Assembly (NCBI GenBank): GCA_963764065.1
Contig: CAVXRM010000001.1
Location: forward strand, 58-64,057
Direction: 5' to 3'
From: an uncultured Gammaproteobacteria bacterium
Lineage (GTDB): Bacteria > Pseudomonadota > Gammaproteobacteria > Steroidobacterales > Steroidobacteraceae
DNA length: 64,000 bases
Shown in pieces: positions 1 through 26,138 of the stretch (its first letter is position 1; the number at the start of each line of letters is the position of its first letter). The notes under the pieces were generated by a model, which saw only the letters and a program-made list of their open reading frames with translations, did no database searches and was not told the origin of the DNA. The position numbers were made by a program, and so were the translations under genes.

Positions 1-323
1 TTGGTTGGCATCGCCCTTTCTAGCTCTGCACTCGCCGTAGACGCTAGTGGTAGCCTCAAGCAGTGCAATGGTGGCAAGCCCGTTGCCAATGTCGGCTTCT
101 ATTTATCACAAGCGCGCCGACATCTGAAGATATTGCATGGCGTTGGACAGGGTTAGGTCATGATGACTATAGACTTGACTCTGTGTGCATCGATCTGACC
201 AAGCGAGTAACTTGGGTGGTGCTGTTTGTGGGGCGTGGGATACACTCCCCGCCGTGGTCACATTCCGGTTGCGATTGATGACAGAGTCGACGATTGAGAC
301 TGTTGTCGGGCACTAATGCGCTG

Positions 324-407
324 CCTAACTACGCGTTCGAGCGGACGGTGAAATCGCCACGCAATCATTGGCGTTTGCGCGCCGCCGCTCAACGCGAGCG
401 TTAGGCG
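324..407 (+). repeat. attC site 1 (short class, 84 bp)
   Basis: GCCTAAC-TACGCGTTCGAGCGG ... CCGCTCAACGCGAGC-GTTAGGC. Confidence 0.75.
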
Positions 408-839
408 ACTCGACGCCACAATAGACAAAGTTGGCAGCCTAGCTGCTAAGAAGCAAAACCTTTAGGGTGTCGCGGGTGTTGCGGCAAGTGGGCGGTGGTG
501 GGCTTGACAGCTGACGAGAGGTTGGGTCAACACAGTTGAGGTCATCCGTTTCGAGCATCACTTCGGGTGCTAGGCTAGCTGCGTGAACCGCCAGCGTTCA
601 TGTGATCATAAAGTGCCGCGCCGCCGCGCGCTGATCACCGTTGTGTTGCGTGGTTCCGCACGGTGGCATCCGCCCGCAGGTTCATCGGTCAAGGGCTGTG
701 GCGTGTGCCGCTCTACCTGTGGCAAGCCCAGAAAGCAGGCGAGTCTTCAGCGCTGCGCTTCGGCGGCGGTTGCCGATACTAATCGGCGCCGTGCGGCGCC
801 GCATGTTAGCAGCCCGTCACGCACGGCTGGCATGCGGCA

Positions 840-965
840 CCCTAACAACGCGTTCGAGCGGTCCGTGAAACGATATCGTGTGCGCGCCGCGAACGCGGCG
901 CGCCATCATGTGCCGCCGGCGCGCAGCCGCGCTCATCGCGCGGCCGCTCAACGCGAGCGTTAGGT
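840..965 (+). repeat. attC site 2 (126 bp)
   Basis: CCCTAAC-AACGCGTTCGAGCGG ... CCGCTCAACGCGAGC-GTTAGGT. Confidence 0.8.
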
Positions 966-977
966 GACTGGCTGCAC

Positions 978-1223
978 ATGAACCAACCAACGCCAAGCGA
1001 ATTCACTGTGGGATTTGGGCGCATTGCCCGAACTCTTGATTACGCCGATCAAATTGGGCATCTGGTGTTCACATTTGATCTATCGGGCAAGGGCCCCAAA
1101 TCGTTCCACCTGGAGCATGGGGCCGACCGATCGCAGAGAGACGCTCGATACAGCGTGGCCTATAAGCGCACAATGGTCTTTCTCAAATCTCGAGGGTACG
1201 AGGTTGACGAGTTTGTGGCGTAG
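978..1223 (+). CDS. cassette ORF, hypothetical protein (81 aa)
   Basis: ATG ORF that fills the cassette between attC2 and attC3. No motif recognised. Confidence 0.5.
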   Translation: MNQPTPSEFTVGFGRIARTLDYADQIGHLVFTFDLSGKGPKSFHLEHGADRSQRDARYSVAYKRTMVFLKSRGYEVDEFVA

Positions 1224-1235
1224 CGTGGGCCTGTC

Positions 1236-1361
1236 ACCTAACAACGCGTTCGAGCGGTCCGTCATGCCTGGTCGCAGGCGCGCCGCGAGCGCGGCACGCC
1301 ATCATGCGCCTCCGGCGCGCAGCCGCGCTCATCACGCGGCCGCTCAACGCGAGCGTTAGGG
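1236..1361 (+). repeat. attC site 3 (126 bp)
   Basis: ACCTAAC-AACGCGTTCGAGCGG ... CCGCTCAACGCGAGC-GTTAGGG. Confidence 0.8.
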
Positions 1362-1685
1362 GGCACAGTCGGGCGCGAATGTTGGGCCGCATGCCAAGCT
1401 AACGCGGCACACCTTGTTCGATCGTCCGCGTCGACAAGCCCCGACCGCTCAGTCAGTGCCTTCGCTTCCGCGGCGTGACCCATCACCGCAAGCCCATGTT
1501 TGGCTCCCAAGGCCTGGGTAGCGTTTCGGGCTCTACAAGTCCCGAAAATCCGTGATCTCTCTGACTCCTGCGGCCACCCGCTTGCGCCGCTACGAATGAG
1601 GGGGCATTCTTAGGCGGCGAGTCAATGGCATCGATCTCGCGACAGCGGCAACTCTGGAGGCATAGGAAGTGTCATCTGCTGCGCC

Positions 1686-1811
1686 CCCTAACAACGCGTT
1701 CGAGCGGTCCGTGAACCGTCATTGCGTGCGCGCCGCTAACGCGGCACGCCATCATGCGCTTCCGGCGCGCAGCCGCGCTCATCGCGCGGCCGCTCAACGC
1801 GAGCGTTAGAC
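1686..1811 (+). repeat. attC site 4 (126 bp)
   Basis: CCCTAAC-AACGCGTTCGAGCGG ... CCGCTCAACGCGAGC-GTTAGAC. Confidence 0.8.
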
Positions 1812-1820
1812 CCACGCTTT

Positions 1821-2351
1821 ATGGACACCGTTGTTCATGCCACGCAGGAGTCGGAGTTACCTCGGCGCTTCATCAAGGTAAACCACGCCGGCGAGCACGG
1901 TGCCGTCAATATCTACAGGGCGCAAGCTTTAGTGTGCAGGTTGACGGCACCAGACTTAGTGCCGGTGCTGCAAGAGTTTCGAGCACATGAGGAACGGCAT
2001 AGGGCACTCTTCAGTCATTACCTCTCGAAGCACAAGTCAAGGCGATGTCGCAGCTACCACCTCTGTGGCATTGGCGGCTTTGTTCTTGGGGCCATAAGTG
2101 GGCTGTGTGGGCGCGCAGCCGTTGCCGCAACTACCATTGCTGTTGAGAAAGTGGTTCTAAGGCACCTCAACGAGCAGCTCGTACAAATTGCCAACGACGC
2201 TGACGCGCACGCGGCAGTCTCAGCCATTATTCGCGACGAGACAGAGCATCACGATCGCGCTAGTCTTGATGTAAAGCAGGGGACCTTCTGGCCGAGACTG
2301 TTTATGCCGTTGGTCAGCGGTGCTACCGAGGCGGTGATCTGCTGGGGTTAA
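1821..2351 (+). CDS. cassette ORF, demethoxyubiquinone hydroxylase (COQ7)-like di-iron protein
   Basis: VNHAGEHGA..., EERH, VEK..., ETEHH form a duplicated E...ExxH di-iron carboxylate pattern typical of COQ7. Confidence 0.7.
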   Translation: MDTVVHATQESELPRRFIKVNHAGEHGAVNIYRAQALVCRLTAPDLVPVLQEFRAHEERHRALFSHYLSKHKSRRCRSYHLCGIGGFVLGAISGLCGRAAVAATTIAVEKVVLRHLNEQLVQIANDADAHAAVSAIIRDETEHHDRASLDVKQGTFWPRLFMPLVSGATEAVICWG

Positions 2352-2369
2352 AGTTGTGAGCATGCTTGG

Positions 2370-2495
2370 GTCTAACAACGCGTTCGAGCGGTCCGTCATG
2401 CCTGGTCGCAGGCGCGCCGCGAGCGCCCTGGTACATTGTGCGCCCGCGGCGCGCGTCATGCGGCATCGCGCGGCCGCTCAACGCGAGCGTTAGAT
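2370..2495 (+). repeat. attC site 5 (126 bp)
   Basis: GTCTAAC-AACGCGTTCGAGCGG ... CCGCTCAACGCGAGC-GTTAGAT. The central part is nearly identical to attC 6. Confidence 0.8.
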
Positions 2496-2500
2496 TCCGA

Positions 2501-2812
2501 ATGTATCGGGCGTTTCTACTTCTCCTGGTTCTTGCCCTCGCGTCGCGGCCTGATGTTTTGTACGCTCAGACACACGCAGGAATTACCATCGACGTGGCCA
2601 CGGACGGCACTTGCCGTGCCGCGGGCTTGCATGTTTCGTGTCGCGACATCGGAGCAAAGCTTCGCGAGTCGCGGGCTCCACTAGACACATGGTTGACGTT
2701 CTCCGGAGACGGCGCTCTCAACTACCCATTGTTGAAATCAACTATTGACTCACTCGCGCACGCGGGCTTTAGTAAAATGAAGATTGGATTCCTTGTGGAG
2801 CCGGTTCACTAA
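2501..2812 (+). CDS. cassette ORF, small secreted protein (103 aa)
   Basis: ATG 6 nt after attC5. N-terminal signal peptide MYRAFLLLLVLALASRPDVLYA. Confidence 0.55.
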   Translation: MYRAFLLLLVLALASRPDVLYAQTHAGITIDVATDGTCRAAGLHVSCRDIGAKLRESRAPLDTWLTFSGDGALNYPLLKSTIDSLAHAGFSKMKIGFLVEPVH

Positions 2813-2831
2813 TGTACGGCGCGCATTCGAA

Positions 2832-2957
2832 ATCTAACAACGCGTTCGAGCGGACCGTCATGCGTCGTCGCAGGCGCGCCGCGAGCGCCCTGGTACATTG
2901 TGCGCCAGCGGCGCGCCTCATGCGGTATCGCGCGGCCGCTCAACGCGAGCGTTAGGC
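2832..2957 (+). repeat. attC site 6 (126 bp)
   Basis: ATCTAAC-AACGCGTTCGAGCGG ... CCGCTCAACGCGAGC-GTTAGGC. Confidence 0.8.
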
Positions 2958-2961
2958 GGCC

Positions 2962-3348
2962 ATGACCTACCCGAGTCTCGTGCGTCGCTACGTCGCAACC
3001 ACCGTTGACGTTATAGCGATCATCTTTATCTTCTATATCTACGCCCAGAGCCCCTTGTACATTGCTCACGATGGTGTCACTGCTGTATGGCCGCTGTGGT
3101 TGTTTGTCCTATATGAGCCCATATGCAATCGATACCTCACAACGCTAGGGCAGTTCGTAATGCATTTCAGGGTACGTACGTACGTAGGACATAAGCGCGT
3201 ACCCGTGTGGAGAGGTATCGTTAGAGTGCTCGCCAAGTATGCGCTGGGCGCGCTGTCGTTCTTTCGAATGCCAATGCAAAAACAACGCAGAGCACTTCAC
3301 GACATCATTTCTGGCACGATCGTAATCGAAGCGGGAGGGCCTGTATGA
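2962..3348 (+). CDS. cassette ORF, RDD-family membrane protein
   Basis: N-terminal RRYVATTVDVIAII and C-terminal HDIISGTIVI are RDD-like, with hydrophobic helices. Confidence 0.55.
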   Translation: MTYPSLVRRYVATTVDVIAIIFIFYIYAQSPLYIAHDGVTAVWPLWLFVLYEPICNRYLTTLGQFVMHFRVRTYVGHKRVPVWRGIVRVLAKYALGALSFFRMPMQKQRRALHDIISGTIVIEAGGPV

Positions 3349-3364
3349 ATGCGTGTGCGCGGCC

Positions 3365-3490
3365 GCCTAACAACGCGTTCGAGCGGTCCGTGAAGCGTCA
3401 TCGCGTGCGCGCCGCGAGCGCGGCACGCCATCATGCGCCGTCGGCGCGCAGCCGCGCTCGTCGCGCGGCCGCTCAACGCGAGCGTTAGGT
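3365..3490 (+). repeat. attC site 7 (126 bp)
   Basis: GCCTAAC-AACGCGTTCGAGCGG ... CCGCTCAACGCGAGC-GTTAGGT. Confidence 0.8.
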
Positions 3491-3493
3491 TGC

Positions 3494-4048
3494 ATGCGCG
3501 CGCACTTCGTCTTGCTGATCCTCGCAAGTGCCGCATGCTCGGCGCAGCCCTACACCTTTCGAGGTATCTCTCAAAACCTCACTTGCGAGGAGGCCCGTGC
3601 GAAAGAAGCCGCACTGGGTAGCGTATTCGTGCGCGAAGTAACTCCGAACGCATCCGAGCCGCAGTATAAGCATTACCTGTTCACTGGCACTCTCTATGAC
3701 GCACCGGTGGAGATCAAGTTGGGGTGTCTCACGTTGCAAGGGTCCGGGCGACAAATTCTCTACGACGGGTTCTACATCTTCCACTCGCCCGAGTCGGTTC
3801 CAGCCAACGCATTCCTGGATCGCATCATCCGTGAACTCACGCCTACGTACGGTGCACCCAGAGAAGTTGCGGACATCTGGAACAAGGCAGACGGTACAAG
3901 CACGATCATTGGAAAGAGAGTTCTGTTTGCCTGTGTCAATGACGCCCGTTCGGGCTATTCCCTGATGGCCTTGCTTCGTAACCCCGCGCAGGCGCAACTT
4001 GACTACCAAGTGGTGTTAGACATGCGTTACGTTAATGGTCCATGCTAG
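3494..4048 (+). CDS. cassette ORF, secreted hypothetical protein (184 aa)
   Basis: Starts 4 nt after attC7. Signal peptide MRAHFVLLILASAACSAQ. Confidence 0.55.
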   Translation: MRAHFVLLILASAACSAQPYTFRGISQNLTCEEARAKEAALGSVFVREVTPNASEPQYKHYLFTGTLYDAPVEIKLGCLTLQGSGRQILYDGFYIFHSPESVPANAFLDRIIRELTPTYGAPREVADIWNKADGTSTIIGKRVLFACVNDARSGYSLMALLRNPAQAQLDYQVVLDMRYVNGPC

Positions 4049-4064
4049 AGCAGCCGCGCATGCA

Positions 4065-4148
4065 AACTAACTACGCGCTCGAGCGGACAGCTAAACAGCA
4101 ATGCAATCTTCGGCGTGGTCGCGCCGCCGCTCAACGCGAGCGTTGGGC
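4065..4148 (+). repeat. attC site 8 (short class, 84 bp)
   Basis: AACTAAC-TACGCGCTCGAGCGG ... CCGCTCAACGCGAGC-GTTGGGC. Confidence 0.7.
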
Positions 4149-4170
4149 GACCCCGCAGCAGGTAGCGCAT

Positions 4171-4464
4171 ATGACACCGCGCGAGGAGACTTTTGTTAGA
4201 CGCTGGGCAGTTCAAAGGGCGCGGGGTCGGCGTCACTACGTACTCATGGCCGGCGTGGTTGGCTACGGCGTACCAATGTTTGTGGTAATGACCTGCGTTG
4301 TAAATAGGCCTGCCCATCTGACGATTGGCGAACTCGCTGGCGCGGCTGCGGTGTGGGCTATTGCAGGGTTGGGCTTTGGCGCAACTGTCTGGTACTTCTC
4401 GGAGCGACGCTACAGGCGATTGGTCCCGAGTGAAGGAAGTGGGGTTAAAAGTGGGATCGCCTAA
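4171..4464 (+). CDS. cassette ORF, small two-helix membrane protein (97 aa)
   Basis: First ATG after attC8. Two hydrophobic segments. Stop lies within the R'' of attC9. Confidence 0.5.
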   Translation: MTPREETFVRRWAVQRARGRRHYVLMAGVVGYGVPMFVVMTCVVNRPAHLTIGELAGAAAVWAIAGLGFGATVWYFSERRYRRLVPSEGSGVKSGIA

Positions 4465-4584
4465 CGACGCGTTCGAGCGGTCCGTGAAACGATATCGCGA
4501 GCGCGCTGCGAGCGCGGCGCGCCATCATGTGCCTCCGGCGCGCGGCCGCGCTCAACGCGCGGCCGCTCATCGCGAGCGTTAGAC
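4459..4584 (+). repeat. attC site 9 (126 bp)
   Basis: GCCTAAC-GACGCGTTCGAGCGG ... CCGCTCATCGCGAGC-GTTAGAC. The TAA stop of the preceding ORF lies inside R''. Confidence 0.8.
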
Positions 4585-4587
4585 CAC

Positions 4588-5043
4588 ATGAATGCACCAT
4601 TTCTGTATGCGTTAGTGATAGCGATGGCGGGCGTTGCGCCGCTCAGCGCGTTCTCTGCGGAGTCGCAGTGCGGCGGCAACGCGATTGACGTAGGCAGATG
4701 TCAGGATAGTGCACTTCGTGCCGCTAACGAGCGGCTCAACGCGGTTTACTCCATGGTTACAAAGATGTTTGATGCGGGCGAGGTTGATTCCGACATCTCG
4801 TACTTTCCCATCAAGAAGGCGAAAGCGATTGCTGCCGAGCGCTCGTGGATCCGGTATAGAGACGCACAGTGCGGGGCCGAAGGCGCGATGATTATCCCTG
4901 GATCTGGTGTCGCCACTGTAACGGGTAGGTGCCTTTTGTTGCTGACGCAAGAGCGCATAGGCTATTTGGAAAGCCTCGCTGATGAGCTTAGGGGAGAGTC
5001 AAAGCTGTGCGAGAACGACGCCTCCGCGTGCAAGTTGAAGTGA
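4588..5043 (+). CDS. cassette ORF, LprI/DUF1311-family (lysozyme-inhibitor-like) secreted protein
   Basis: Signal peptide, conserved Cys pairs and the ERSWIRYRDAQC motif typical of DUF1311. Confidence 0.65.
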   Translation: MNAPFLYALVIAMAGVAPLSAFSAESQCGGNAIDVGRCQDSALRAANERLNAVYSMVTKMFDAGEVDSDISYFPIKKAKAIAAERSWIRYRDAQCGAEGAMIIPGSGVATVTGRCLLLLTQERIGYLESLADELRGESKLCENDASACKLK

Positions 5044-5077
5044 ATAGGAGTCACGAGAGGTGGCAGGGCGGAATGTG

Positions 5078-5203
5078 GTCTAACTACGCGTTTGAGCAGA
5101 CCGGGGAGCCGTCCGCGCGGGCGTGCGTCCGGCAATCACAACCATTGAGGCCGGCCGCGCGCTTGAAGCGCTTGCGGCCGGCCGCTCAACGCGAGCGTAA
5201 GAC
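5078..5203 (+). repeat. attC site 10 (126 bp, degenerate R')
   Basis: GTCTAAC-TACGCGTTTGAGCAG ... CCGCTCAACGCGAGC-GTAAGAC. R' reads GTAAGAC, not GTTRRRY. Confidence 0.65.
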
Positions 5204-5244
5204 GTCAGACTTGACGTGCACTACGTTGTACGTACACTGTAAGA

Positions 5245-5538
5245 ATGGATGGCATCCGCTTCGAGTGGGACCCCAAGAAGAACCGGCTCAACAAGGCTCG
5301 GCACGGGGTGTCGTTTGAAGAGGCAAAAACAGCCTTCTTTGACGAACACGCACGGATCATTGCTGATCCCGAGCACTCTGACGATGAAGACCGGTTGATT
5401 CTCCTCGGTCTGAGCATTGACTTGCGTGTTCTGGTGGTCTGCCACTGCTACAGGGAGTCAGACCGCATCATTCGCATTATATCCGCCCGAAAGGCCGACT
5501 CATCTGAACGAAGCGAGTACGCAGGGTTCCTACCATGA
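5245..5538 (+). CDS. brnT: BrnT-family (DUF497) toxin
   Basis: FEWDPKKNRLNKARHGVSFEEAKTAFFD...IRIISARKA is the DUF497/BrnT signature. Confidence 0.8.
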   Translation: MDGIRFEWDPKKNRLNKARHGVSFEEAKTAFFDEHARIIADPEHSDDEDRLILLGLSIDLRVLVVCHCYRESDRIIRIISARKADSSERSEYAGFLP

Positions 5539-5747
5539 AGAAGCACTACGATTTTTCCAAGTCGAAGCCCAACCCCTATGTGGGTAAGGCTAAGCGTTCC
5601 ATTACTATTCGCCTCGATCCCGGTACCATCGATTACTTTCGCGATTTGGCCGGCACAACCGGCATCCCATATCAGAATCTGATAAACCTGTATCTTCGGG
5701 AATGTGCGTCGGAGAAAAAGCGCTTGCGGCTTGAGTGGGCGGCCTGA
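5535..5747 (+). CDS. brnA: BrnA-family antitoxin
   Basis: 4-nt ATGA overlap with brnT. YDFSKSKPNPY...ITIRLD...IDYFR...GIPYQNLINLYLRECA. Confidence 0.8.
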   Translation: MKKHYDFSKSKPNPYVGKAKRSITIRLDPGTIDYFRDLAGTTGIPYQNLINLYLRECASEKKRLRLEWAA

Positions 5748-5748
5748 C

Positions 5749-5836
5749 GCCTAACAACCGCATCGAGCGCGCGCGTGAACGATAGAGTGCCAAGCTCGAG
5801 CATGGGTGCCCGCGGCGCTCATGCGGAGCGTTAGGC
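5749..5836 (+). repeat. attC site 11 (short class, 88 bp)
   Basis: GCCTAAC-AACCGCATCGAGCGC ... GCGCTCATGCGGAGC-GTTAGGC. Both arms changed together relative to the other copies (compensatory covariation). Confidence 0.75.
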
Positions 5837-5840
5837 ACCC

Positions 5841-6350
5841 ATGGAACCGAAGACACTAGCATCAGTTGTCGTCGTCGCCCTAAGTTCGCTCTCGGCGGTC
5901 TCTATAGCTGCTGCCCCAGAGACGGACGAACCGATCTCGGGGGTAACCGTATCCAGCTCGGGCCACGGTATTCCATACGGAACCAGCGCTGGCAAAGATT
6001 ACCTTCCATGGTTGAAGCCCACGAATGACCCAGAATATGGCTACTCCAAGAGCAAGCCCATTGAGATTGGGGGGTTTCTCGAAGGCAGGGGCAATGATTG
6101 GCCCGATCAGTATTTCAGCTCACTACTTGGCCCGAATGGTGAGCCGACCAGCTTTGAGCGAGTCGGGAGCTGCTGCGCCTTTGAGACGAAGAACCCTAAG
6201 ATCGTCCAGGCAGGCATGAAAGTTGGTTTCCTCGATGTCTTCAAAGTCACCATCCTGGGGCGAGAGCCGGTCCTTATCTATGTGACGCTATATTCAGAAG
6301 GGCGCATCTCGGCGCCAAAAGGGTTCACTACGCGAGGAAGGGGTGCCTAA
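5841..6350 (+). CDS. cassette ORF, secreted hypothetical protein (169 aa)
   Basis: Starts 5 nt after attC11. Has a signal peptide. Stop TAA lies inside the R'' of attC12. Confidence 0.55.
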   Translation: MEPKTLASVVVVALSSLSAVSIAAAPETDEPISGVTVSSSGHGIPYGTSAGKDYLPWLKPTNDPEYGYSKSKPIEIGGFLEGRGNDWPDQYFSSLLGPNGEPTSFERVGSCCAFETKNPKIVQAGMKVGFLDVFKVTILGREPVLIYVTLYSEGRISAPKGFTTRGRGA

Positions 6351-6470
6351 CAATGCGCTCGAGTGAACCGTGATCCGCTGTCGCAGGCGCGCCGCCGGCG
6401 CGGCACGCCATCAAGCGCCGCCGGCGCGCAGCCGCGCTCATCGCGCTGCCGCTCAACGCGGGCATTAGGT
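6346..6470 (+). repeat. attC site 12 (125 bp, degenerate R')
   Basis: GCCTAAC-AATGCGCTCGAGTGA ... CCGCTCAACGCGGGC-ATTAGGT. R' has lost its G. Confidence 0.65.
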
Positions 6471-6476
6471 CTCTGC

Positions 6477-6971
6477 GTGGGCATCATCGCGATTCGGGAT
6501 GCGACTCGAGACGACTACGAGGTCATTCTCGCGCTCAACCTTGCTGACGTGACGCACACGAGCCCAATGGACTCAGCACGGCTGATCACCCTCAGTGGTA
6601 TATCGTGCTATCACCGCGTTGCGTGTATGGACGGCCAGGTATTGGGCTTCCTCCTAGCGATGCGCAGCGGCGCTCCCTACGAGAATGACAATTTTGCGTG
6701 GTTCAGCCGCAAGTACCCAAGCTTTGTGTATGTGGACCGTGTCGTTATCTCAAATGCTGCGCGAGGGCAACGCTTAGGGTCACTGCTGTATGAAGACCTG
6801 TTCGGTTGGGCCCGACAGAACGGCATCCCGCATGTGACGTGTGAATACAATATTGTTCCTGCCAATGAACCATCACGACTGTTTCACGAGAAATTCGGAT
6901 TCAAGGAGCAGGGGACCCAGTGGGTATCAAATCGTACTAAACTCGTCTCGCTGCAAGCGGCACAGACCTGA
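6477..6971 (+). CDS. GNAT-family N-acetyltransferase (last cassette or first core gene)
   Basis: GTG start just after attC12. VDRVVISNAARGQRLGSLLYEDL is an acetyl-CoA-binding Q/RxxGxG/A-like motif. No attC follows it. Confidence 0.65.
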   Translation: MGIIAIRDATRDDYEVILALNLADVTHTSPMDSARLITLSGISCYHRVACMDGQVLGFLLAMRSGAPYENDNFAWFSRKYPSFVYVDRVVISNAARGQRLGSLLYEDLFGWARQNGIPHVTCEYNIVPANEPSRLFHEKFGFKEQGTQWVSNRTKLVSLQAAQT

Positions 6972-7013
6972 CAGCCGCATGGACCGATCGGGTTGCTACC
7001 GCCTCAGTTCATG

Positions 7014-7616
7014 TCACTTTGGTTGCATGTTCAAAGTGCCGCAAAACGCCGAGGCATCATGAAAATCCGGCTGCTCCCGCGGATGATTCAACGCCCAGTA
7101 TGAGTGCTGCCCATTGTTCGCTTCGATTACCGCCGCCACGCCCACCTGCCACCCGGCAATGCCCGAGCCGGCCGCCATCGCAGGCACGACAATACTGGCG
7201 CAGACCAGCAGATCCCGTTCGGCTTCATGGCGCAGCTCGATCTTGCAATGACCGGCCTCGAGATCGCGCTGACCACGACGGTAGTCTTCGAACTCGTATG
7301 CAGCCCAGGCGCCCCCGGGCGCGAAATTGAATTCCAGGTAGCGCGGCGAATCACCGGCGCGCGCAAATAGCTCCAGGCAGGTGTGGCGCCACAATTGATC
7401 ACGGCGGGCAGCGCCGCGTGCCTTGCCGCCGGAATGTTCCGGCATCCGCACAAGCTGCAGGTTGCCATGCAGTCGGTATTCAAGAGCCAGTACGCCATCG
7501 CCTCCCAGCGACCCCGACACCATGATGGAGGTCAGCGGTGCGCTGCGCGCAGTCGTACCACGCACGGCGCCGCCCGGATGGCAGATCAAGGGCAGATCAT
7601 CGAAGCGTGCAGTCAT
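7014..7616 (-). CDS. conserved hypothetical protein (possibly DOMON-like fold)
   Basis: 200-aa ORF with the WRHTCLELF...YLEFNFAPGGAWAAYEF motif. Assignment is from memory only. Confidence 0.45.
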   Translation of the reverse strand: MTARFDDLPLICHPGGAVRGTTARSAPLTSIMVSGSLGGDGVLALEYRLHGNLQLVRMPEHSGGKARGAARRDQLWRHTCLELFARAGDSPRYLEFNFAPGGAWAAYEFEDYRRGQRDLEAGHCKIELRHEAERDLLVCASIVVPAMAAGSGIAGWQVGVAAVIEANNGQHSYWALNHPREQPDFHDASAFCGTLNMQPK

Positions 7617-8092
7617 TTAGTCCGCGGGCCGGTCGGGTATTCGCTGCCGTCACGATGCCGGTAGACACTCTCGCCCTTCAGTATCTGCAGGTCGATGTCC
7701 GGATAATCCACGGCCTCTTCGGTCGGACGCCGCGAGCCTACTTCAAGCACCAGCGCATCGGCGTTCGAGCGATTCTGCAACTGGTGGCCGTCGGCCACAC
7801 CGGCCTTGAATCCGGCGCAGTCGCCGGCGCGCAGCACTTCCTCACCCTGGTTGGTGACCAGGACGACTTCGCCAGCCAACACGTAGACGAATTCGTCCTC
7901 GGCGGCGTGCCAGTGCCGCTGGCTCGACCAGGTGCCCGGCGGCAGGCGCAGGCGATTGACGCCGAACTGCGTGAGTCCGGCCGCATCGCCGAGTCGCGAG
8001 CGATGTCGCTCCCGGCAGGGCACATCGTAGGGTGGCGGATAGCGGGTGCCCGTCAATACCTGAACCTGGTCTTCATTGATCTTCGCGCTCAT
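7613..8092 (-). CDS. cupin domain protein
   Basis: HWHAAEDEFVYVLAGEV...GDCAGF is a cupin motif. Start taken at MSAKINED. Confidence 0.75.
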   Translation of the reverse strand: MSAKINEDQVQVLTGTRYPPPYDVPCRERHRSRLGDAAGLTQFGVNRLRLPPGTWSSQRHWHAAEDEFVYVLAGEVVLVTNQGEEVLRAGDCAGFKAGVADGHQLQNRSNADALVLEVGSRRPTEEAVDYPDIDLQILKGESVYRHRDGSEYPTGPRTK

Positions 8093-8108
8093 ACCGTACT
8101 CCGATGAT

Positions 8109-9329
8109 TCATCGCGTTGCCGATTGCGTCGCAGGCAGCACCTGCGCGCGCGCCACCGCCGGCCGCGCATCGCGCTGGTAGGGCCAGGGCAGGGTGTCCA
8201 GTGTAGCGAGCAGCGCATGCACGAAAGCGTCCTGGCGACGCCGTGCAGTGCGCACCGGCACGCCATGATTCAGGATCGCGAAGTAGACCGTGCCGCGATC
8301 GCGGGTGGCGATCGCGCCGATGAGTGCGCTGGCGCCATAGTCACCGAAGGTGCCGGTCTTGCCAACCACGCGACCGCTGTCGGTGCTGCTGTTCAGGCGA
8401 TCGCGCAGCGTGCCATCGTCGACGCCGGCAACGGGGAGGATATCGACCAGCGTATGGCCGCTGCGCGCGAGTTCCTGCTCGAGCGCACGCAGCAGTTTGA
8501 CCGCGACCCTGGGGCTGAGCCGATTGCGCGCGTCGGTGCCGGCGCCATCGCCGAGGATGATCTCGCCGCGCATGTCGGCCGGTACCACATCGCACGCCAA
8601 TGCCTGTACGGCAGTGGCGCCGCCCGCGGCATCGGCGAGCGGCTTGAAGATGTTGTTGGAGTAATCGTTCAGCCCCTTGACCAGGGGTATCAGCGGTTGC
8701 GAGCGATGCAGCAGGAGCGGTGCGACGCTGGCCGCAGCTTCGGTACTCGCGGCATCGCCGAACACCAGCGCCGGGGCGCGGCTGCTCGCGGTGGCGGGCA
8801 AGTCGGGAAAGGCGGCGCGCACCTCGTCCCACGCGGCCTGCGGAGCGCGGCCCTCCAGTGAGGCGCGCAGCCGCGGCGCCAGTGTGTCATCGCGCCAGTT
8901 GAACATCAGCGGACCTGTGAGCCGCAGCGTGCCGCTGACCCGCTGCACGCCCAGGTCGCGCAGCGCGGCGCCTACCAGCAGCGCGTTCTCGTCCACGAAG
9001 TAGGGATCGCCGCTCCCTTCGATCAGCAGATCGCCCTGCAGGATGCCAGCACTCACGGGGCCCGTGGCCGCGATCGTGGTAGTGAACCGGTAGTCGGGCC
9101 CGAGCCTGCGCAACAGTGCCAGCGTGGTGGGTACCTTGGAGACCGAAGCCGGATGTACCGCGCGGGCCGCCGCTTGTGCCAGCAAGACAGTGCCATCGCC
9201 CGCCTCCACGTAGACTCCCTGGCCGGCGCCCAGCAGGCGTTGCGCCAGCGAGGCGAGCGCGTCCGTGGCGCCGGCGGGTAGGCTCGCGCAGCACAACAGC
9301 AGCAAGATTGCAGCGGGCTTGCGGGTCAA
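8109..9329 (-). CDS. dacB: D-alanyl-D-alanine carboxypeptidase/endopeptidase (PBP4, peptidase S13)
   Basis: Signal peptide, SVSKV (SxxK) active site, and KTGT near the C-terminus. Confidence 0.8.
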   Translation of the reverse strand: MTRKPAAILLLLCCASLPAGATDALASLAQRLLGAGQGVYVEAGDGTVLLAQAAARAVHPASVSKVPTTLALLRRLGPDYRFTTTIAATGPVSAGILQGDLLIEGSGDPYFVDENALLVGAALRDLGVQRVSGTLRLTGPLMFNWRDDTLAPRLRASLEGRAPQAAWDEVRAAFPDLPATASSRAPALVFGDAASTEAAASVAPLLLHRSQPLIPLVKGLNDYSNNIFKPLADAAGGATAVQALACDVVPADMRGEIILGDGAGTDARNRLSPRVAVKLLRALEQELARSGHTLVDILPVAGVDDGTLRDRLNSSTDSGRVVGKTGTFGDYGASALIGAIATRDRGTVYFAILNHGVPVRTARRRQDAFVHALLATLDTLPWPYQRDARPAVARAQVLPATQSATR

Positions 9330-9400
9330 GCTTTTCTCCGATCGGCGCAGCTTGGTTTGGAAATGCGATAATGCCTCAATAAATCCCCGGGGGACATGAC

Positions 9401-11653
9401 ATGTCGGAACACCATTGGCGGCGCGTGGGTCTCCCCGCGGCGCTGGTCATTTTGCCACTGCTGGCGGTCGCAGTGAGCACGACCTCGACCACAGATGCGA
9501 GTGAAGTCACGGCTGTCGCGACAGCGCTTGACCCGGCCAATCCCTTTGCAGCCCCGAGCAGCTTGCCCTACCAGCTGCCGCCCTTCGATCGCATCCACGA
9601 TGGCGATTTCATGCCGGCTTTCACCGCCGGCATGGCCGAGCAGCTGCGTGAAGTGCAGGCGATCACCAGCAATCCCGAGCCTGCCAGCTTCGAGAACACC
9701 TCGCTGGCGCTGGAGAAAACCGGGCGCCTGCTCGGGCGCGTCGGCCGGACCTTCAATTCCCTCAATGCCTCGCACGGGAGCGAGGCCACGCAGAAGATCG
9801 AGGCCGACACGGCGCCACTGCTGGCCGCGCACAGCGATGCGATCAACCTGGATGTGGCGCTGTTCAAGCGCATCGACGATTTGTACCAGCGACGCAGCAG
9901 TCTCGGCCTCGATGCCGAATCGCTGGCGCTGCTCGAGCGGCAGCACCTCGACTTGGTGCGTGCCGGGGCGATGCTGCCCGAAGCGGCCAAGGCGCAGCTG
10001 CGTCACTACAACACGGAGATCTCGACGCTGGCATCGCAGTTCGGCCAGAATCTGCTCAAGGAGGCACGCGATGGCGGCGTGCTCGTCGACCAGCTGAGCG
10101 AGCTCGACGGACTGTCGGCGGCGCAGGTCGCTACCGCGGCCGAGGTGGCCAAGGCGCACGGCATGCCGGGCAAATGGATGCTGCCGCTGCAGAACACGAC
10201 CACGCAGCCGGTACTGGCGCAGCTGAAGAATCGCGCGCTGCGCGAGCGCATCTACAAGGCATCGGTGACACGCGCCAGCAGCGGCGCCACCAACAACCTG
10301 CCGGTGTTGCTGCAGCTGTCGAAGCTGCGCGCCGAGCGCGCGCAACTGCTGGGCTACGCGAGTCATGCGGCCTACACGCTGGAAGACGAGTCCGCGGGCA
10401 CACCGGCCGCCGTCGACGCCATGCTCAAGCAGCTGGCCGGACCGACACGCGCCGCGGTATCGCGCGAGACGGCGGCGATCCGCGCGTTGATTGCGCAGCA
10501 GGCGGCCAAGGCACACACCCGGCCCTTCGAGCCGCAGGCCTGGGACTGGGATTTCTACGCCGAGCAGGTGCGCAAGGCGCGCTATGACTTCAATGAAGAA
10601 GAGGTCAAGCCCTACTTCGAACTGAATCGCGTGCTCCAGGATGGCGTGTTCTACGCGGCGCACGAACTGTTCGGGCTCACCTTCAAGGAGCGCAAGGATC
10701 TGCCGGTCTACGGCCCCGACGTCGGTGTCTACGAAGTCTTCGATGCCGATGGCTCGGCGCTGGCGCTGTTCTACACCGATTACTTCGCGCGCGACTACAA
10801 GAACGGCGGCGCCTGGATGAGCAATTTCGTCGAGCAGTCGCAGCTCTTCGGCTTGCGGCCGATCGTCGTCAACAACGTCAACATCGACAAGCCCGCGCCC
10901 GGGCAGCCGGTGCTGCTGAGCTTCGATGAGGTGCGCACGCTGTTCCATGAATTCGGCCACGCCCTGCATGGCATGCTCTCGAACGTGAAATACGAGAGCC
11001 TGGCAGGCGCCAACACCACGCGCGATTTCGTCGAGTTCCCCTCGCAGTACAACGAGATGTGGGCGCGCGAGCCGGTGGTGCTGGCACACTATGCGCGCCA
11101 CTACCAGACCGGCGCACCGCTGCCGCCGGCGCTGCTGCAGCGGATCCTCGCCGCGCAGAATTTCAACCAGGGTCATGACACGGCGGAGAAGATCACCGCC
11201 GCGGCGATCGACATGGCCTTCCACCAGCTGAAGCCCCAACAGGTGCCGGCACCCGACGAGGTTGCCGCCTTCGAGCGGCAGACCATGAAGTCGCTGGGGC
11301 TGGACCTCGATGCGGTGCCGCCGCGCTACTACGCCCCGTATTTCCGCCACGTGTTCGCCGATGAGTATTCGGCCGGTTACTACGCCTATTTGTGGAGCGA
11401 GGTGCTGGCGCGCGATACGGGTCAGTGGCTGCATGAGCACGGCGGCCTGACGCGCGCGAACGGACAGATCCTGCGCGACAAGGTGCTCTCGCGCGGCCGT
11501 ACCCAGAGTCCCCAGCAGCTGTTCCAGGATTTCTACGGACACGCACCCGATGCCGGTCCGCTGCTCGAGTACCACGGACTCAAGCCCAGCGCGGCGCCCA
11601 AGTCGAAGCTCACGCCCAGCGCGCGCGCCGCGCCGCAGTCTGGCCAGCATTGA
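9401..11653 (+). CDS. dcp: M3-family peptidyl-dipeptidase
   Basis: 750 aa with a signal peptide and the HEFGHALH zinc motif. Confidence 0.85.
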   Translation: MSEHHWRRVGLPAALVILPLLAVAVSTTSTTDASEVTAVATALDPANPFAAPSSLPYQLPPFDRIHDGDFMPAFTAGMAEQLREVQAITSNPEPASFENTSLALEKTGRLLGRVGRTFNSLNASHGSEATQKIEADTAPLLAAHSDAINLDVALFKRIDDLYQRRSSLGLDAESLALLERQHLDLVRAGAMLPEAAKAQLRHYNTEISTLASQFGQNLLKEARDGGVLVDQLSELDGLSAAQVATAAEVAKAHGMPGKWMLPLQNTTTQPVLAQLKNRALRERIYKASVTRASSGATNNLPVLLQLSKLRAERAQLLGYASHAAYTLEDESAGTPAAVDAMLKQLAGPTRAAVSRETAAIRALIAQQAAKAHTRPFEPQAWDWDFYAEQVRKARYDFNEEEVKPYFELNRVLQDGVFYAAHELFGLTFKERKDLPVYGPDVGVYEVFDADGSALALFYTDYFARDYKNGGAWMSNFVEQSQLFGLRPIVVNNVNIDKPAPGQPVLLSFDEVRTLFHEFGHALHGMLSNVKYESLAGANTTRDFVEFPSQYNEMWAREPVVLAHYARHYQTGAPLPPALLQRILAAQNFNQGHDTAEKITAAAIDMAFHQLKPQQVPAPDEVAAFERQTMKSLGLDLDAVPPRYYAPYFRHVFADEYSAGYYAYLWSEVLARDTGQWLHEHGGLTRANGQILRDKVLSRGRTQSPQQLFQDFYGHAPDAGPLLEYHGLKPSAAPKSKLTPSARAAPQSGQH

Positions 11654-18934: not shown

Positions 18935-21900
18935 CTAGTGCTTGAACGCCGCATCGCCCACCCGGTGATAGTTGGCCGGGTGCGAGGTGACGAGGCTGCG
19001 TTGCGTGGCATCGCTGTACACGTGGCAGGCGCCGGTACAGTCGTGTAGTTCGGCCACCGTATACAGCAGCCCATTGCTGGTCTTCGGATGCTGTGCAGCC
19101 TGGTAACGCGCGGCATGGCATCCGGCACAGCTGCCGGCGTAGGCCGCCGCGGGCCAGGGGATCTGCTCGCTGTTGCTGGTGTGGCAGCTGTTGCAGGTGA
19201 GCGCAGCGCGATGCTGGCCGGGGAAGGCGCCAGCACTGTGCACGAAATGCCAGGCGCTCCAGTCCGGATAGCTGTGGCAGGTGGCGCAGTCGAGCCGCGT
19301 GCCCAGGTGCGTCGTCGTCAGGCCCGTGGCCACGCTGTTGTTGTGGCAGCTGACGCAGTTGGCCGTCAGCGTGCTGTGATCCATCAGCGCCGGCTTCCAT
19401 CCGAGCGTGCCGTGGCAACTGTCACATTGTGCCGTCGTGGGCACGTGGTTGACGGGCAGGCCCATTGCCTGCAGGCCGTTGTGGCAACTGCGGCAGCTGT
19501 GCGCGGCAATGGCGCTGTGCTCGAAGCGCGCCGGCGTCCACGCGTTGCTGGTATGACAGGCCTCGCAGCTGTTGTTGCTGGCGATGTGATGGGTACCTTT
19601 GCCGCGCGCCACGCTGCCGTTGTGGCAGCTGCTGCAGCTGCCCTTGACCTGCAGGTGATCGACGCTGCTGACTGGCAGCCAGGCCAGGGTGGTGTGGCAA
19701 GTTCCGCAACTGTCGCTGCTGGCGATGTGGGTGACTGGCTTGCCGATGCCGCTGGCCGCGCCGTGGCAACTCTGGCAACTGCTTCCCACCACGCGCCGAT
19801 GATCGAAGCCCGCCGTGCGCCCCAGCGTTGCACCGCCACCCAATGAGGGCACTGCAGTGAAGTTGCCGGCTCGTTGCGCGGGCGTGAGCGGCGCGCCGCG
19901 GCGTGCACCGAACTTGTCGCGGGTGGAATGACAGCCCGAGCCGCCGCAATCCACGCCTTTGTGATGATTGGCGGAATCGCGCACCCACAGTCGCACGCCG
20001 GTGTTGGTCTTCCAGGTCATCCCGATTTCATGACAACTCATGCAGGTCATGGCGCGCACCGCGGCGTGCTTCATGATCGTGCCGGAGAAAGTAGTGAACA
20101 CCGTGGCAGAGTGGCACAGCTCGCAGGCGATGTTGTTGGTGCCGTTGGGCGGGTTCGAGGGGATGTGCCCCGTGGCGCCCGAGGGCGGTGCCTTCAGGGT
20201 CGGCGCCGCCATGTTGGCGAAGGCCAGGCCGTAGGCGTGGCATTGTGCACAGTTGCTGCTGATGTTCACGTGGTTCATCGTCGCCACGCTGTAGTTGCCG
20301 GCTGTGGTGTGGCACAACGCGCAGTTGTTGGCGTCGGCCGCCGGCAGCGGGATGTGGTTGGCCGGCAGATCGGTCGCGCCCTTGAAGCTGGTGGTATTGA
20401 AATGGCAGGTGGAGCACTCGCCGGCTGCCACGTGCGCAGTACCGTCGGCCTTCTTCGCCGGGCGCACCTTGGTCGCTGGTGTACCGATGAAGGTCTTGCC
20501 GGCTTCATGGCAGCTCGAGCAGACGATCGCCGTCACCAGGCTGTGCACCATCGATGGCGGCGCCGTGCCGCTCGCATTGCTGATCAGGAAAGTGCTGAAG
20601 TTGCTGGCCGAGTGGCAGCCCTCGCAGGCTATCGTGCCCGTCGGGATGTGATTGCCCGGTAGCAGCTTGGTGGCCGGCGTACCCACGAAACTCTTGCCGG
20701 CGCCATGGCAGTTGACGCAACCCGTGGCGAAGCCCGTGTGCACCATCGAGGGCGGCGTCGTGCCACTGGCATTGGTGAACGCAAAGCTCGAGAAATTGGT
20801 CGGCGAGTGGCACTGCGTGCACACCACGGTGCCGATCGGGATGTGATTGCCTGGCTCGACCACAGTGGCAGGCGTGCCGACGAAGCTCTTGCCCGGGCCG
20901 TGACAGGTAGTGCAGGCAGTGGTCGATACCACGGCATGGTTCATCGGCGGGCTCTTGTTGTTGATCACGAAACTCGTGAAGCCCGTGGCGCTGTGGCAGC
21001 TCTCGCAAGCCGCAGTCCCAAAGGGCACGTGGTTCGCCGGCGGCAACTTCAAGGTCGGCGGCGCCATGTTGGCGAAGCTCTTGCCCGTGGCATGGCACTG
21101 CGCACAATTGCTGGCGATGTTCACGTGGTTCATCGTCGCCACGCTGTAGTTGCCCGCCGTGGTGTGGCAGAGCGCGCAGTTGTTGGCGTCGGCGGCCGGC
21201 AGCGGAATGTGATTGGCCGGCAGGTCGGTGGCGCCCTTGAAACTCGTGGTATTGAAGTGGCAGGTAGAGCACTCGCCCGAAACCACGTGCGCTGTGCCAT
21301 CGGCTTTCAACGCGGGGCGCACTTTGGTGGACGGCGTGCCCACGAATGACTTGCCGGCCTCGTGGCAGGTGGAGCACACGATCGCCGTAACCAGGCCGTG
21401 CACCATTGAGGGCGCCGCGCTGCCACTGGCATTGGCAAAGGCGAAGCTGCTGAAAGCCGTGCTGGAGTGGCAGCCCTCGCAGGCCATGCTGCCAGTGGGA
21501 ATGTGGTTGGCAGGCAGCGACTTCACCGCCGGCGTGCCCACCCAGCTCTGGCCGACACCGTGGCAGGTCACGCAGGCTCGTGGTGAATCCCGCGTGATTC
21601 ATCGGCGGCACCGCGTTGGCGATCACGAAGCTGCTGAAGTTGCTGGCCGAATGACAGTTGGTGCAGGCCGTGGTGCCGATGGGCACGTGGTTGCCGGGTT
21701 CGACGACCGTGACTGGCGTGCCGATGAAACTCTTGCCGGGGCCGTGACAGGTACTGCAGGCGATGGTCGTGACCACCGCATGGTTCATCGGCGGGCTCTT
21801 GTTGTTGATCACGAAACTCGTGAAGCCCGTGGCGCTGTGGCAGCTCTCGCAAGCCGCAGTCCCAAAGGGCACGTGGTTCGCCGGCGGCAACTTCAAGGTC

Positions 21901-24900: not shown

Positions 24901-26138
24901 GGTGGTCCGCTGCCGCTCGCATTGGCGAACATGAACGTGGTGAAGTTCGAACTCGAGTGGCAGTTCTCGCAGGCGCTGGCACCGAAGGGCACGTGATTCG
25001 CCGGCGGCACCTTGAGCTGCGGCGGCGCGAGGTTGGCGAAGCTGCGGTCGGCTGCGTGGCACAGCGCGCAGCCGCTGCTGATGCCATCGTGCCGCATCAG
25101 GTACACACTGAAATCCGCCGGGTTCGAATGACAGAGCGTGCAGGGCTGCGCGGTGGGTATGTGTCCGCTGGGTTGTACGGTGCCGTTGGTAAACGAGACT
25201 GTGGACAGGTGACAGGTGCCACAATCGCCCTGTGCCGGATGTGGCGCTGCGGGCCGCGTCACCATCGTCACGCCGAAGAAGTTCCTGCCGGCCTCATGGC
25301 AATCCGCGCACGGCATGGGCGGTGTCACGGCGGTGTGATTCATCAGCGCGCCACTGAAGCTGGTGTACTGCGTAGGGACATGGCACGCCTCGCAGGCTGC
25401 GCCGTCCGTCGGTAGGTGCGTGGATGGCATGCCGCTGGCCGAAATGCCGTTGTGGCAGCTGGCGCAACCGCTCACTACGCCCGAGTGGTTGAAGACCGCG
25501 CCGCCCCAGTTGAAGGTGGAATGGCAGGCATCGCACTCGAGATTGGTCTCGATATGTTGCGGCCCCTTGCCCTGGGCCTGCACGTTGTTGTGGCAGGAAG
25601 AGCAGCCGCCACGCACTTCCGCGTGATCGAAATTCACCGCCGGACTGAACGCCACGGGTGTGTGGCAGCTCTCGCAGCGGTTGGAGCTCAGGATGTGGTT
25701 GAGCGGCTTGCCGGTAGCGTGCACCTGCGTGCCCAGGCCGTGGCAACTCGCGCAGTCGCGCGGCGTGCCCTTGAACACTGCATTGAAGTGACAGGTTTCA
25801 CAGGGCAGATCGCGATGCTTGCCGATCAGCTCGAAGCCGGTGGTCAGGTGATCGAAGGGCGTGCGCTGCACTTTGGGTGACTGTACGGGCGCGGTCGCGG
25901 CTGCCGCCGCTGTCGCAGGTGCCACTGCCGCTGTCGGCGCCTGGCCTGGCACCGACGCCGGTGCCGCAACTGCCGGGCACGTGGCCCACAGCAGCAGCAC
26001 TGCGAGCAGCATTCGCCCACTGACGCCGCGCGCGCGCGGCGTGCTGAGCGTGTTCAGCTTTGCCACTCTGGCAGTGGCCTGCCGGTGCGGCAGTGTGAGT
26101 GCAGATGCGCGCCGCTGCGTAAACGCCGCGAGTCGCAC
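18935..26138 (-). CDS. giant secreted multihaem c-type cytochrome (~2360 aa, ~74 CxxCH), interrupted by one frameshift near 21578
   Basis: The two ORFs 20505-26138 and 18935-21571 join into one reading frame if one base is removed at ...FTT|ACVTCH. Signal peptide LLAVLLLWATCPAVAA; the likely start is GTG 26066 or ATG 26012. CxxCH occurs on average every ~32 aa, with conserved distal His in NH[IV]P, MNH and MVH. Confidence 0.8.

Follow-up and report, generated by a model that had tools for sequence, protein, structure and literature searches.

The first 7,013 positions of the analysed window (64,000 nucleotides, from a contig of 64,313 bp) are, with high confidence, the attI-distal end of a cassette array of the sedentary chromosomal integron type, carried by an uncultured Steroidobacteraceae-like gammaproteobacterium. 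With equally high confidence, this stretch contains 11 complete cassettes, another that the contig end interrupts and, last, a GNAT unit that lacks a site. Chromosomal integrons are well known and this is a genuine, ordinary instance of one. The present analysis demonstrates the attC architecture of the sites and shows that the array was built by recombination at G|TT. The 12 repeats lie between 323 and 6470, all on the plus strand, and have lengths of 84, 88 or 126 nt; they are spaced 396-684 nt apart, with a single site closing each gene-sized unit. Given the orientation of the sites, the integrase end is on the left, outside the window, and the first-pass annotation, which had described the distal part of an attC array, was therefore correct on this point. 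The GC content is 56.3% in the cassette bodies, 69.3% in the attC sites and 65.7% in the other 57 kb, in agreement with the earlier observation that the DNA between the repeats is less GC-rich. The other 57 kb is ordinary chromosome with Dcp, a TonB-dependent receptor and flagellar genes.

The sites differ in length and in the preservation of their boxes. The general pattern is CTAAC to the left and GTTAG to the right. The first site, attC1 (323-406, 84 nt), has GCCTAAC as R'' and GTTAGGC as R' and scored 78.8 bits with a covariance model derived from the 12 sites themselves. Sites of 126 nt are attC2 (840-965; 139.8 bits), attC3 (1236-1361), attC4 (1686-1811), attC5 (2370-2495), attC6 (2832-2957), attC7 (3365-3490; the top score, 140.3 bits), attC9 (4459-4584), attC10 (5078-5203), which is a divergent subtype with R' GTAAGAC, and attC12 (6345-6470). 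The last of these is the most degenerate 126-nt site, and its R' (ATTAGGT) has the crossover G changed to A. The R box of attC8 (4065-4148, 84 nt) is degraded (AACTAAC / GTTGGGC), and attC11 (5749-5836) is 88 nt long. The claim that every repeat carries RYYYAAC and GTTRRRY held only in part: CTAAC is present in all 12 sites and GTT in the R' of 10, sites 10 and 12 being the exceptions, while the strict consensus fits nine of 12 left boxes and nine of 12 right boxes. The variable central regions reported earlier were recovered, as the 84-, 88- and 126-nt classes have an identical arm layout.

With filters off, the covariance model gave the 12 sites at 66-140 bits and the next best match at 20 bits. 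A generic RYYYAAC...GTTRRRY grammar, which is independent of these sites, matched six times in 64 kb, each time among the attC sites. The 20-mer CCGCTCAACGCGAGCGTTAG, with up to three mismatches, had 11 matches, all on the plus strand at 385-6468, where 0.01 is expected by chance. The Rfam scans (whole window at the gathering threshold, and 1-7100 by E-value) returned nothing; attC is not an Rfam family. The 20-bit match at 8675-8776 contains neither CTAAC nor GTTAG and was rejected as an attC site, being a GC-rich chance match.

Folded as DNA, the bottom strand gives an R helix of 6-7 bp, an internal loop of 2/3 nt, a 6-bp helix and a bulged G, followed by a second 6-bp helix, a bulged A/T and a variable centre. 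The first-pass annotation had proposed an imperfect inverted repeat with an extrahelical base and had suggested bottom-strand folding as a check; the folds show R and L helices with bulges on the R''-L'' arm, the full arrangement was found in 10 of 12 sites, and z-scores were between -2.9 and -4.9 for nine of 12. The exceptions to the full arrangement are attC8, in which the R helix is lost and the fold is no better than that of shuffles, and attC12; both have poor folds and damaged R boxes. The spacer between the R and L helices is unpaired and short, with 2 nt opposite 3 nt. Two positions of the R''-L'' arm, 16 and 23, hold the extrahelical bases, and position 16 is a bottom-strand G in 11 of the 12 sites. 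The mean stability advantage of the bottom over the top strand is only 1.1 kcal/mol.

Standard pairs occupy 93.5% of the pair cells of the model in the 12 sites; for 150 related sites the figure is 95.7%. Double changes occur at 12 of 22 pairs. None of 500 shuffles attains such values, and sliding of the partners reduces pairing to 20-39%. At the level of sequence, the covariation across the 150 related sites supports the pairing. In attC11 the L helix is preserved by compensatory changes, CCGCAT:ATGCGG replacing CGCGTT:AACGCG.

The boundaries of the cassettes carry a further signature. When R'' is compared with the R' tail that opens the cassette to which it belongs, there are 5 mismatches in 77 positions, against 15 in 77 for the array neighbour (permutation p ~1e-5). 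Judged from the sequences, this own-cassette match is the mark of cassette circles made by an integrase. Stop codons lie within R'' in two ORFs only (ending at 4464 and 6350), so that the earlier mention of several such stop codons was overstated. The repeats could in principle be intergenic palindromes of the REP/BIME or MITE kind, clustered by chance and having no relation to integrons, and they are indeed GC-rich imperfect palindromes between genes. This explanation is scarcely credible, since it accounts neither for the cassette-circle complementarity nor for the linkage to IntI and attI described below, and since orientation is uniform both here and in 71 of 71 related loci (224 sites, with no locus having sites on both strands). 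Dispersal of the repeat outside arrays had been named beforehand as the sign of such elements; each gene-sized unit has a single site, all of the sites lie in one cluster, and the other 57 kb has no copy.

The integron array continues beyond the left end of the contig. No integrase, attI or Pc was found in the 64-kb window (best tblastn E-value for IntI 0.12), in line with the first-pass annotation, which had seen no integrase. The contig breaks off within the array at the end expected to carry intI, and the absence is therefore uninformative. A unique 34-mer from the left end had no match in a metagenome scan. Exact-protein look-ups for five genes of the window and for P0001 gave none recorded as placed genes, which made leftward extension of the contig impossible.

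Arrays of the same attC family in related genomes are linked to an integrase. A divergent integron integrase heads the array in at least 11 related loci. Full-length IntI (TIGR02249, 459-464 bits, cutoff 265) is divergent at the R''-upstream end in L006 (4635-5693) and L004, and a shortened IntI (377 bits with TIGR02249) was found in L053; IntI homologues also flank the arrays in L005, L009, L035, L040, L041, L058, L069 and L071. A conserved attI ending in ...CTTATAG|TTAGGC is common to the three loci compared. The IntI and attI adjoining the arrays of relatives give indirect support for recombination of this attC family by an integron integrase. One relative has at least 55 exact matches to the attC 20-mer across ~34 kb.

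A cluster of attC sites without an integron integrase is termed a CALIN in the terminology of IntegronFinder. The window likewise has attC sites and no integrase, an absence that the contig end can explain. According to this alternative, the array would be a relic or relocated piece of an integron with no adjacent intI, and its cassettes would be mobile only with an integrase supplied in trans. We regard this as unlikely, though it deserves serious consideration: there is no intI within 64 kb, the related genome CAWGKS010000007.1 has a second cluster (L052) ~100 kb from its integrase-linked one, the distal end shows decay in the lost crossover G of attC12 and in the GNAT unit without attC, and the syntenic locus of a relative (see below) has no array. 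Against it, the break of the contig inside the array means that the missing intI says nothing either way, intI occupies the expected end in the at least 11 related loci, and seven 126-nt sites resemble one another closely and have good folds, consistent with recent activity of the system.

The distal boundary of the integron array could be placed within a short interval. The terminal unit (6465-7013, plus strand) has a GNAT acetyltransferase ORF (6477-6971) and a cassette-like GC content of 55.4%, and homology to the GNAT locus of L010 ends at the stop codon. A 13th attC beyond this gene was sought with the covariance model and none was found in 6471-7013. As no attC follows the GNAT ORF, the final attC stops at 6470, and the array boundary falls within 6972-7013, a correction to the first-pass annotation. 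The terminal unit is probably the final cassette, its site having been lost. The first conserved chromosomal gene (7014-7616, minus strand) forms the outer boundary of the array; it encodes a 200-aa protein, a distant homologue of which is named 'DOMON-like' by NCBI. Synteny with the closest syntenic relative, the gammaproteobacterial MAG GCA_025350055.1, begins at this gene, and the syntenic locus of the relative is the one that has no array. Covariance-model matches of 16-18 bits in that locus were rejected, like the chance match at 8675-8776.

If the junction at 6972-7013 were an assembly or binning chimera, the array would not truly lie beside these genes. The contig is of metagenome type and ends in repeats, a different gene (NamZ) follows the 200-aa gene in the relative, and another contig with the same attC family (L044) is clearly mis-binned, being labelled Nitrosocosmicus with a GC content of 70%. 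The junction lies, however, in unique, non-repeated DNA between convergent ORFs, which is not the usual place for a mis-join, and the composition of the flank is like that of the genomes of related array hosts; a chimera is thus very improbable. Spread of the attC family across domains, as the label of L044 would imply, was rejected because that contig is mis-binned.

The distribution of the attC family was examined by scanning for the exact attC pattern in one genome per species. Matches were restricted to Steroidobacteraceae-like, unclassified gammaproteobacterial and some Burkholderiales MAGs, and no Xanthomonas was among them. Integrons of Xanthomonas and the Xanthomonadales are likewise gammaproteobacterial, GC-rich and chromosomal, with taxon-specific attC sites. 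The parallel with Xanthomonas drawn in the first-pass annotation stands as regards family-specific chromosomal attC sites, but not as regards the hosts, which are Steroidobacteraceae-like MAGs. Classic Xanthomonas integrons adjoin ilvD, whereas intI adjoins glmS in two of the relatives found here. The arm layout of the present sites, R''-AA-6 nt-bulged C-6 nt, resembles the presumed layout of attCaadA7, a 'Xanthomonadales-like' site. In attC sites of mobile integrons the unpaired central spacer is longer than in the present sites. The extrahelical bases of attCaadA7 are G16/T23 (PMC5027507), position numbers identical to those found here, which would denote the same positions if the numbering convention is shared. 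'Xanthomonadales-like' attC sites are a described category (PMC8352920).

The superintegron of Vibrio cholerae likewise is chromosomal, has long (~120-130 nt) attC sites specific to the species family (VCR), numerous small cassettes in one orientation, most of them with no known function, and toxin-antitoxin cassettes with their own promoters (see PMC5027507, PMC5371416). It has a divergent integrase at one end, a feature seen here in the relatives. The present host differs in being Steroidobacteraceae-like with ~66% GC, its attC sequence is unrelated, and the 84-, 88- and 126-nt classes are mixed within the array; the VCR has three bulged bases, compared with two in the present sites.

From established integron biology, the minus (bottom) strand of each attC would fold into a hairpin, and the IntI tyrosine recombinase would bind the R and L boxes, read the strand through the bulged bases and cut at the AAC triplet. 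Recombination between attC sites would release cassettes as circles, and these would re-enter at attI beside the integrase gene, where the Pc promoter would drive expression. The integrase gene and attI are predicted to be on the minus strand leftward of position 1, past the contig end. Distal cassettes such as these would be a mostly silent stock; the BrnT/BrnA cassette is the exception, having a promoter-like site of its own, and it probably stabilises the array.

Steroidobacteraceae-like gammaproteobacteria of soil and freshwater are a further lineage hosting large chromosomal integrons, and the attC type of the lineage, now defined, could be used to trace environmental cassettes to their source. 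The practical significance is modest, a reservoir of small genes of unknown function, because no resistance or known defence genes and no tie to plasmid-borne mobile integrons were found: PADLOC and NCBIfam scans of the cassette proteins gave no defence or resistance family above threshold, and searching plasmids with a single attC and with the complete array as queries gave no similar attC or cassette.

The cassettes, all on the plus strand, are for the most part single small genes. Cassette 1 (1-400) is truncated by the start of the contig and window and consists of a partial ORF (1-156) with attC1 at its end. No family match was obtained for the ORFs of cassette 3 (960-1355; ORF 978-1223, 81 aa), cassette 6 (2490-2951; ORF 2501-2812, 103 aa) and cassette 8 (3485-4142; ORF 3494-4048, 184 aa). 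Cassette 5 (1806-2489) encodes a COQ7-like di-iron protein (ORF 1821-2351; PF03232, 128 bits), cassette 7 (2952-3484) an RDD-family membrane protein (ORF 2962-3348) and cassette 10 (4579-5197) an LprI/DUF1311-like protein (ORF 4588-5043). The ORFs of cassette 9 (4143-4578; ORF 4171-4464, 97 aa, stop TAA) and cassette 12 (5831-6464; ORF 5841-6350, 169 aa) are the two that terminate within R''. Judged by eye, the ORFs of cassettes 6 and 12 have a hydrophobic, signal-peptide-like N-terminus. Cassette 11 (5198-5830) contains a toxin-antitoxin pair, BrnT (5245-5538) and BrnA (5535-5747), and the promoter-like site is at 5211-5238.

Four cassettes recur in other arrays. The BrnT/BrnA cassette is also present in L052, L025 and L023 with 88-90% nucleotide identity, the COQ7-like protein has a homologue with 60% identity in the array locus L065 and the 97-aa ORF one with 58% identity in L045. 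The fourth is the ORF-less core of cassette 2. The earlier statement that each repeat lies 3' of an ORF holds for gene-sized units in general, but not for cassette 2 (401-959), which has no convincing ORF, or for cassette 4 (1356-1805), which has none on either strand. At least four other arrays have cassettes in which the core of cassette 2 (~530-765, ~230 nt) is conserved with 70-84% identity, and this core contains the invariant CATAAAGTGCCGCGC.GCCGCGC. It has no match to an Rfam family, and RNAalifold of five sequences of the core gave no convincing covariation. The suggestion that this cassette serves as a non-coding mobile module with a function of its own, for example a small RNA or a promoter/terminator element, is a doubtful one. 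In L053 the core occupies the first position after attI.

The first 7013 nt of the window contain twelve direct repeats, identified with a repeat finder between positions 323 and 6470, all on the plus strand and spaced 396-684 nt apart. Delimited by a CTAAC box on the left and a GTTAG box on the right, and numbered attC1-attC12 from left to right, they form classes of 84 nt (323-406 and 4065-4148), 88 nt (5749-5836) and 126 nt (840-965, 1236-1361, 1686-1811, 2370-2495, 2832-2957, 3365-3490, 4459-4584, 5078-5203 and 6345-6470). Both arms are common to the aligned sites, which differ in the centre. An identical 25-mer lies in the left half of the centre in attC3 and attC5 (1266-1290 and 2400-2424) while attC5 and attC6 have the right half in common; the centres are therefore mosaics, a pattern suggestive of sites having exchanged sequence by homologous recombination and not through the integrase.

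Allowing up to three mismatches, 11 matches to the 20-mer CCGCTCAACGCGAGCGTTAG were found in the window, all of them within 385-6468 on the plus strand (0.01 expected by chance). The 12 sites themselves served to build a covariance model, which was scored at all window positions with filters off and gave them 66-140 bits. The best other match (8675-8776, 20 bits) is without either core box and was dismissed as a GC-rich chance match. A generic grammar, requiring a strict RYYYAAC, a strict GTTRRRY 50-150 nt away and an inner helix of 6 bp or more, gave six matches in the 64 kb, all among the 12 sites, against an average of 0.16 in mononucleotide shuffles. The clustering of the sites, the lack of core boxes in the best other match and the use of one strand per locus in all 71 related genome stretches (224 sites, no mixed locus) argue against a dispersed repeat of the REP or MITE type, in agreement with the first-pass annotation, which had read the repeats as attC sites.

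Integrase recombination at G|TT makes an attC within an array a hybrid, the final six bases of which come from the next cassette. The left core box, R'', is thus expected to be closer to the TTRRRY that opens its own cassette than to the adjoining one. Five mismatches in 77 positions were found within cassettes compared with 15 in 77 within the array, where random pairings give a mean of 14.4 (p ~1e-5). This is the strongest evidence in the window that the array was built by site-specific recombination, because a dispersed-repeat model does not predict it.

Folding every bottom strand as DNA, a check already proposed in the annotation, gave a common arrangement in 10 of the 12 minus strands. 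Outermost is an R helix of 6-7 bp (CCTAAC:GTTAGG), separated by a small asymmetric internal loop from a 6-bp helix (CGCGTT:AACGCG). Inwards of these come a bulged G, another 6-bp helix (GAGCGG:CCGCTC), a further bulged base, three more pairs and the variable centre. Nine of the 12 folds had z-scores of -2.9 to -4.9 relative to shuffles; sites 8 and 12 folded poorly and site 9 had a weak z-score. The bulges lie at positions 16 and 23 of the R''-L'' arm, counted from the first R'' base, compared with the extrahelical bases on the same arm named G16 and T23 in attCaadA7 (PMC5027507), although numbering conventions may differ. Standard pairs fill 93.5% of the cells in a 22-pair model of the 12 sites, with double changes at seven pairs; site 11 has CCGCAT:ATGCGG in place of CGCGTT:AACGCG. 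Sliding the partners reduced pairing to 27-37%. Among 150 related sites from other genomes, in an alignment fitted to the model, 95.7% of cells pair and 12 of the 22 pairs show double changes, values equalled by none of 500 shuffles. As a criterion, strand bias is weak here, because the mean gain in stability of the bottom strand over the top is only 1.1 kcal/mol.

The 71 related stretches were obtained by scanning one genome per species for the exact 20-mer, and the covariance model found 332 sites across them. Most belong to MAGs of Steroidobacteraceae, unclassified gammaproteobacteria and, in some cases, Burkholderiales. The scan gave no match in Xanthomonas, the genus to which the annotation had looked for a precedent, and the host of the window is not Xanthomonas either. 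One MAG contig, CAVPPC010000005.1, has at least 55 exact matches to the 20-mer over about 34 kb. The 20-mer was also found on contigs binned as Nitrosocosmicus (an archaeon), Anaerolineales, Nitrospiraceae, Deinococcota, Chloroflexota and Acidobacteriota (L001, L016, L036, L044, L048 and L054). At 70% GC, the Nitrosocosmicus contig (L044, DASRWT010000136.1) almost certainly sits in the wrong bin.

No integrase homologue was found in the 64 kb (best E-value 0.12), as the annotation had noted. The array orientation would place intI to the left of the window, on the minus strand. A 200-aa protein encoded next to the array has a record at 100% identity on a 64,313-bp contig, so the window leaves out at most 313 nt of it and the contig end falls within the array, on the expected intI side; the array may belong to a complete integron or be a CALIN. 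Two relatives, L006 and L004, have full-length integron integrases (TIGR02249, 459-464 bits, cutoff 265) at the R''-upstream end of the array, transcribed divergently from the cassettes. The glmS gene adjoins the integrase in both (L006 5744-7732, L004 4576-6030), which suggests that the place of this integron lineage in the chromosome is conserved; the window has no glmS. Integrase homologues flank arrays with the same geometry in L005, L009, L035, L040, L041, L058, L069 and L071. A shortened integrase in L053 (147-995, minus strand, 377 bits) lacks about 39 residues relative to the L009 homologue, to which it is 81% identical; this looks like an internal deletion, and the enzyme is therefore probably inactive. 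The spacer between integrase and array is conserved in three loci and ends in ...CTTATAG|TTAGGC, an attI-like junction.

The sequences show an attC architecture, cassettes bounded at G|TT and, in relatives, this type of attC linked to IntI and attI. From general integron biology (PMC5027507, PMC5371416), IntI would bind the folded bottom strands, attC x attC recombination would excise cassettes, and these would be re-inserted at attI and expressed there from Pc, while distal cassettes would be largely silent. The annotation's observation and its reading both stand, with minor corrections, and the array is a further example of a well-known type of element. No paper combining integron, attC and Steroidobacter was found in the literature, which reflects sampling and not a new principle.

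Family matches were obtained for a COQ7-like protein (1821-2351), an RDD-family protein (2962-3348), an LprI/DUF1311-like protein (4588-5043), BrnT (5245-5538), BrnA (5535-5747) and a GNAT acetyltransferase (6477-6971), and five array ORFs had none. In three loci the BrnT/BrnA cassette recurs with 88-90% nucleotide identity. This toxin-antitoxin cassette probably stabilises the array; it has a predicted promoter-like TTGACG-16-TACACT at 5211-5238, in a scan that overall was not above chance. No PADLOC defence or NCBIfam resistance family reached threshold in the cassettes, and the plasmid search gave nothing similar to the array. One ORF or two-gene unit per repeat, as first described, holds for most cassettes, but no ORF is convincing in cassette 2 or cassette 4; stop codons do occur inside R'', though in two cases rather than several. 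In seven of the ten ORF-bearing cassettes the ATG is only 3-12 nt past the preceding attC (for example 2958-2964, 3491-3496, 4585-4590 and 5837-5843), so the sole available Shine-Dalgarno-like element is the AGG of the right core box, GTTAGG.

Cassette 2 (401-959) contains a conserved non-coding core at about 530-765 with an invariant CATAAAGTGCCGCGC.GCCGCGC. Four other loci (L053 1257-1489, L025 1140-1372, L023 1407-1642 and L009 2-237, minus strand) have cassettes with versions of this core at 70-84% nucleotide identity, the one in L053 being the first cassette after attI. Rfam gave no match to the core, and covariation across five sequences was not convincing. Other arrays contain homologues of the COQ7-like gene, of a 97-aa ORF and of this core.

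At the distal end, attC12 (6345-6470) is the most degenerate of the 126-nt class, with the crossover G changed to A. The GNAT ORF that follows is cassette-like in composition (GC 55.4%, compared with 65.7% for the chromosome), and contrary to the expected order no attC comes after it; the covariance model finds no site in 6471-7013. In L010 a 66% identical GNAT gene likewise lies beyond the last recognisable attC, and nucleotide homology ends at its stop codon. The MAG GCA_025350055.1 has Dcp, peptidase S13, a cupin and the 200-aa protein (7014-7616, minus strand, in the window) in synteny with 7014-11653, then runs into NamZ without attC, and its homology to the window goes no further than the end of the 200-aa gene, at the stop codon. 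From the GNAT end, the absent attC and the end of synteny, the array-side boundary is therefore placed, on sequence grounds, within 6972-7013. The most likely reading of the GNAT gene is a terminal cassette whose attC has been lost.

The window outside the array is ordinary chromosome, with Dcp, a TonB-dependent receptor, multihaem cytochromes and flagellar genes. Two overlapping giant ORFs at 18935-26138 (minus strand; 878 and 1877 aa) match DmsE/OmcA-like decahaem families and have 26 and 47 CXXCH haem-binding motifs, repeated regularly every 31-35 residues or so. Their overlap at 20505-21571 suggests a single, very large multihaem cytochrome with a start called wrongly or a frameshift.
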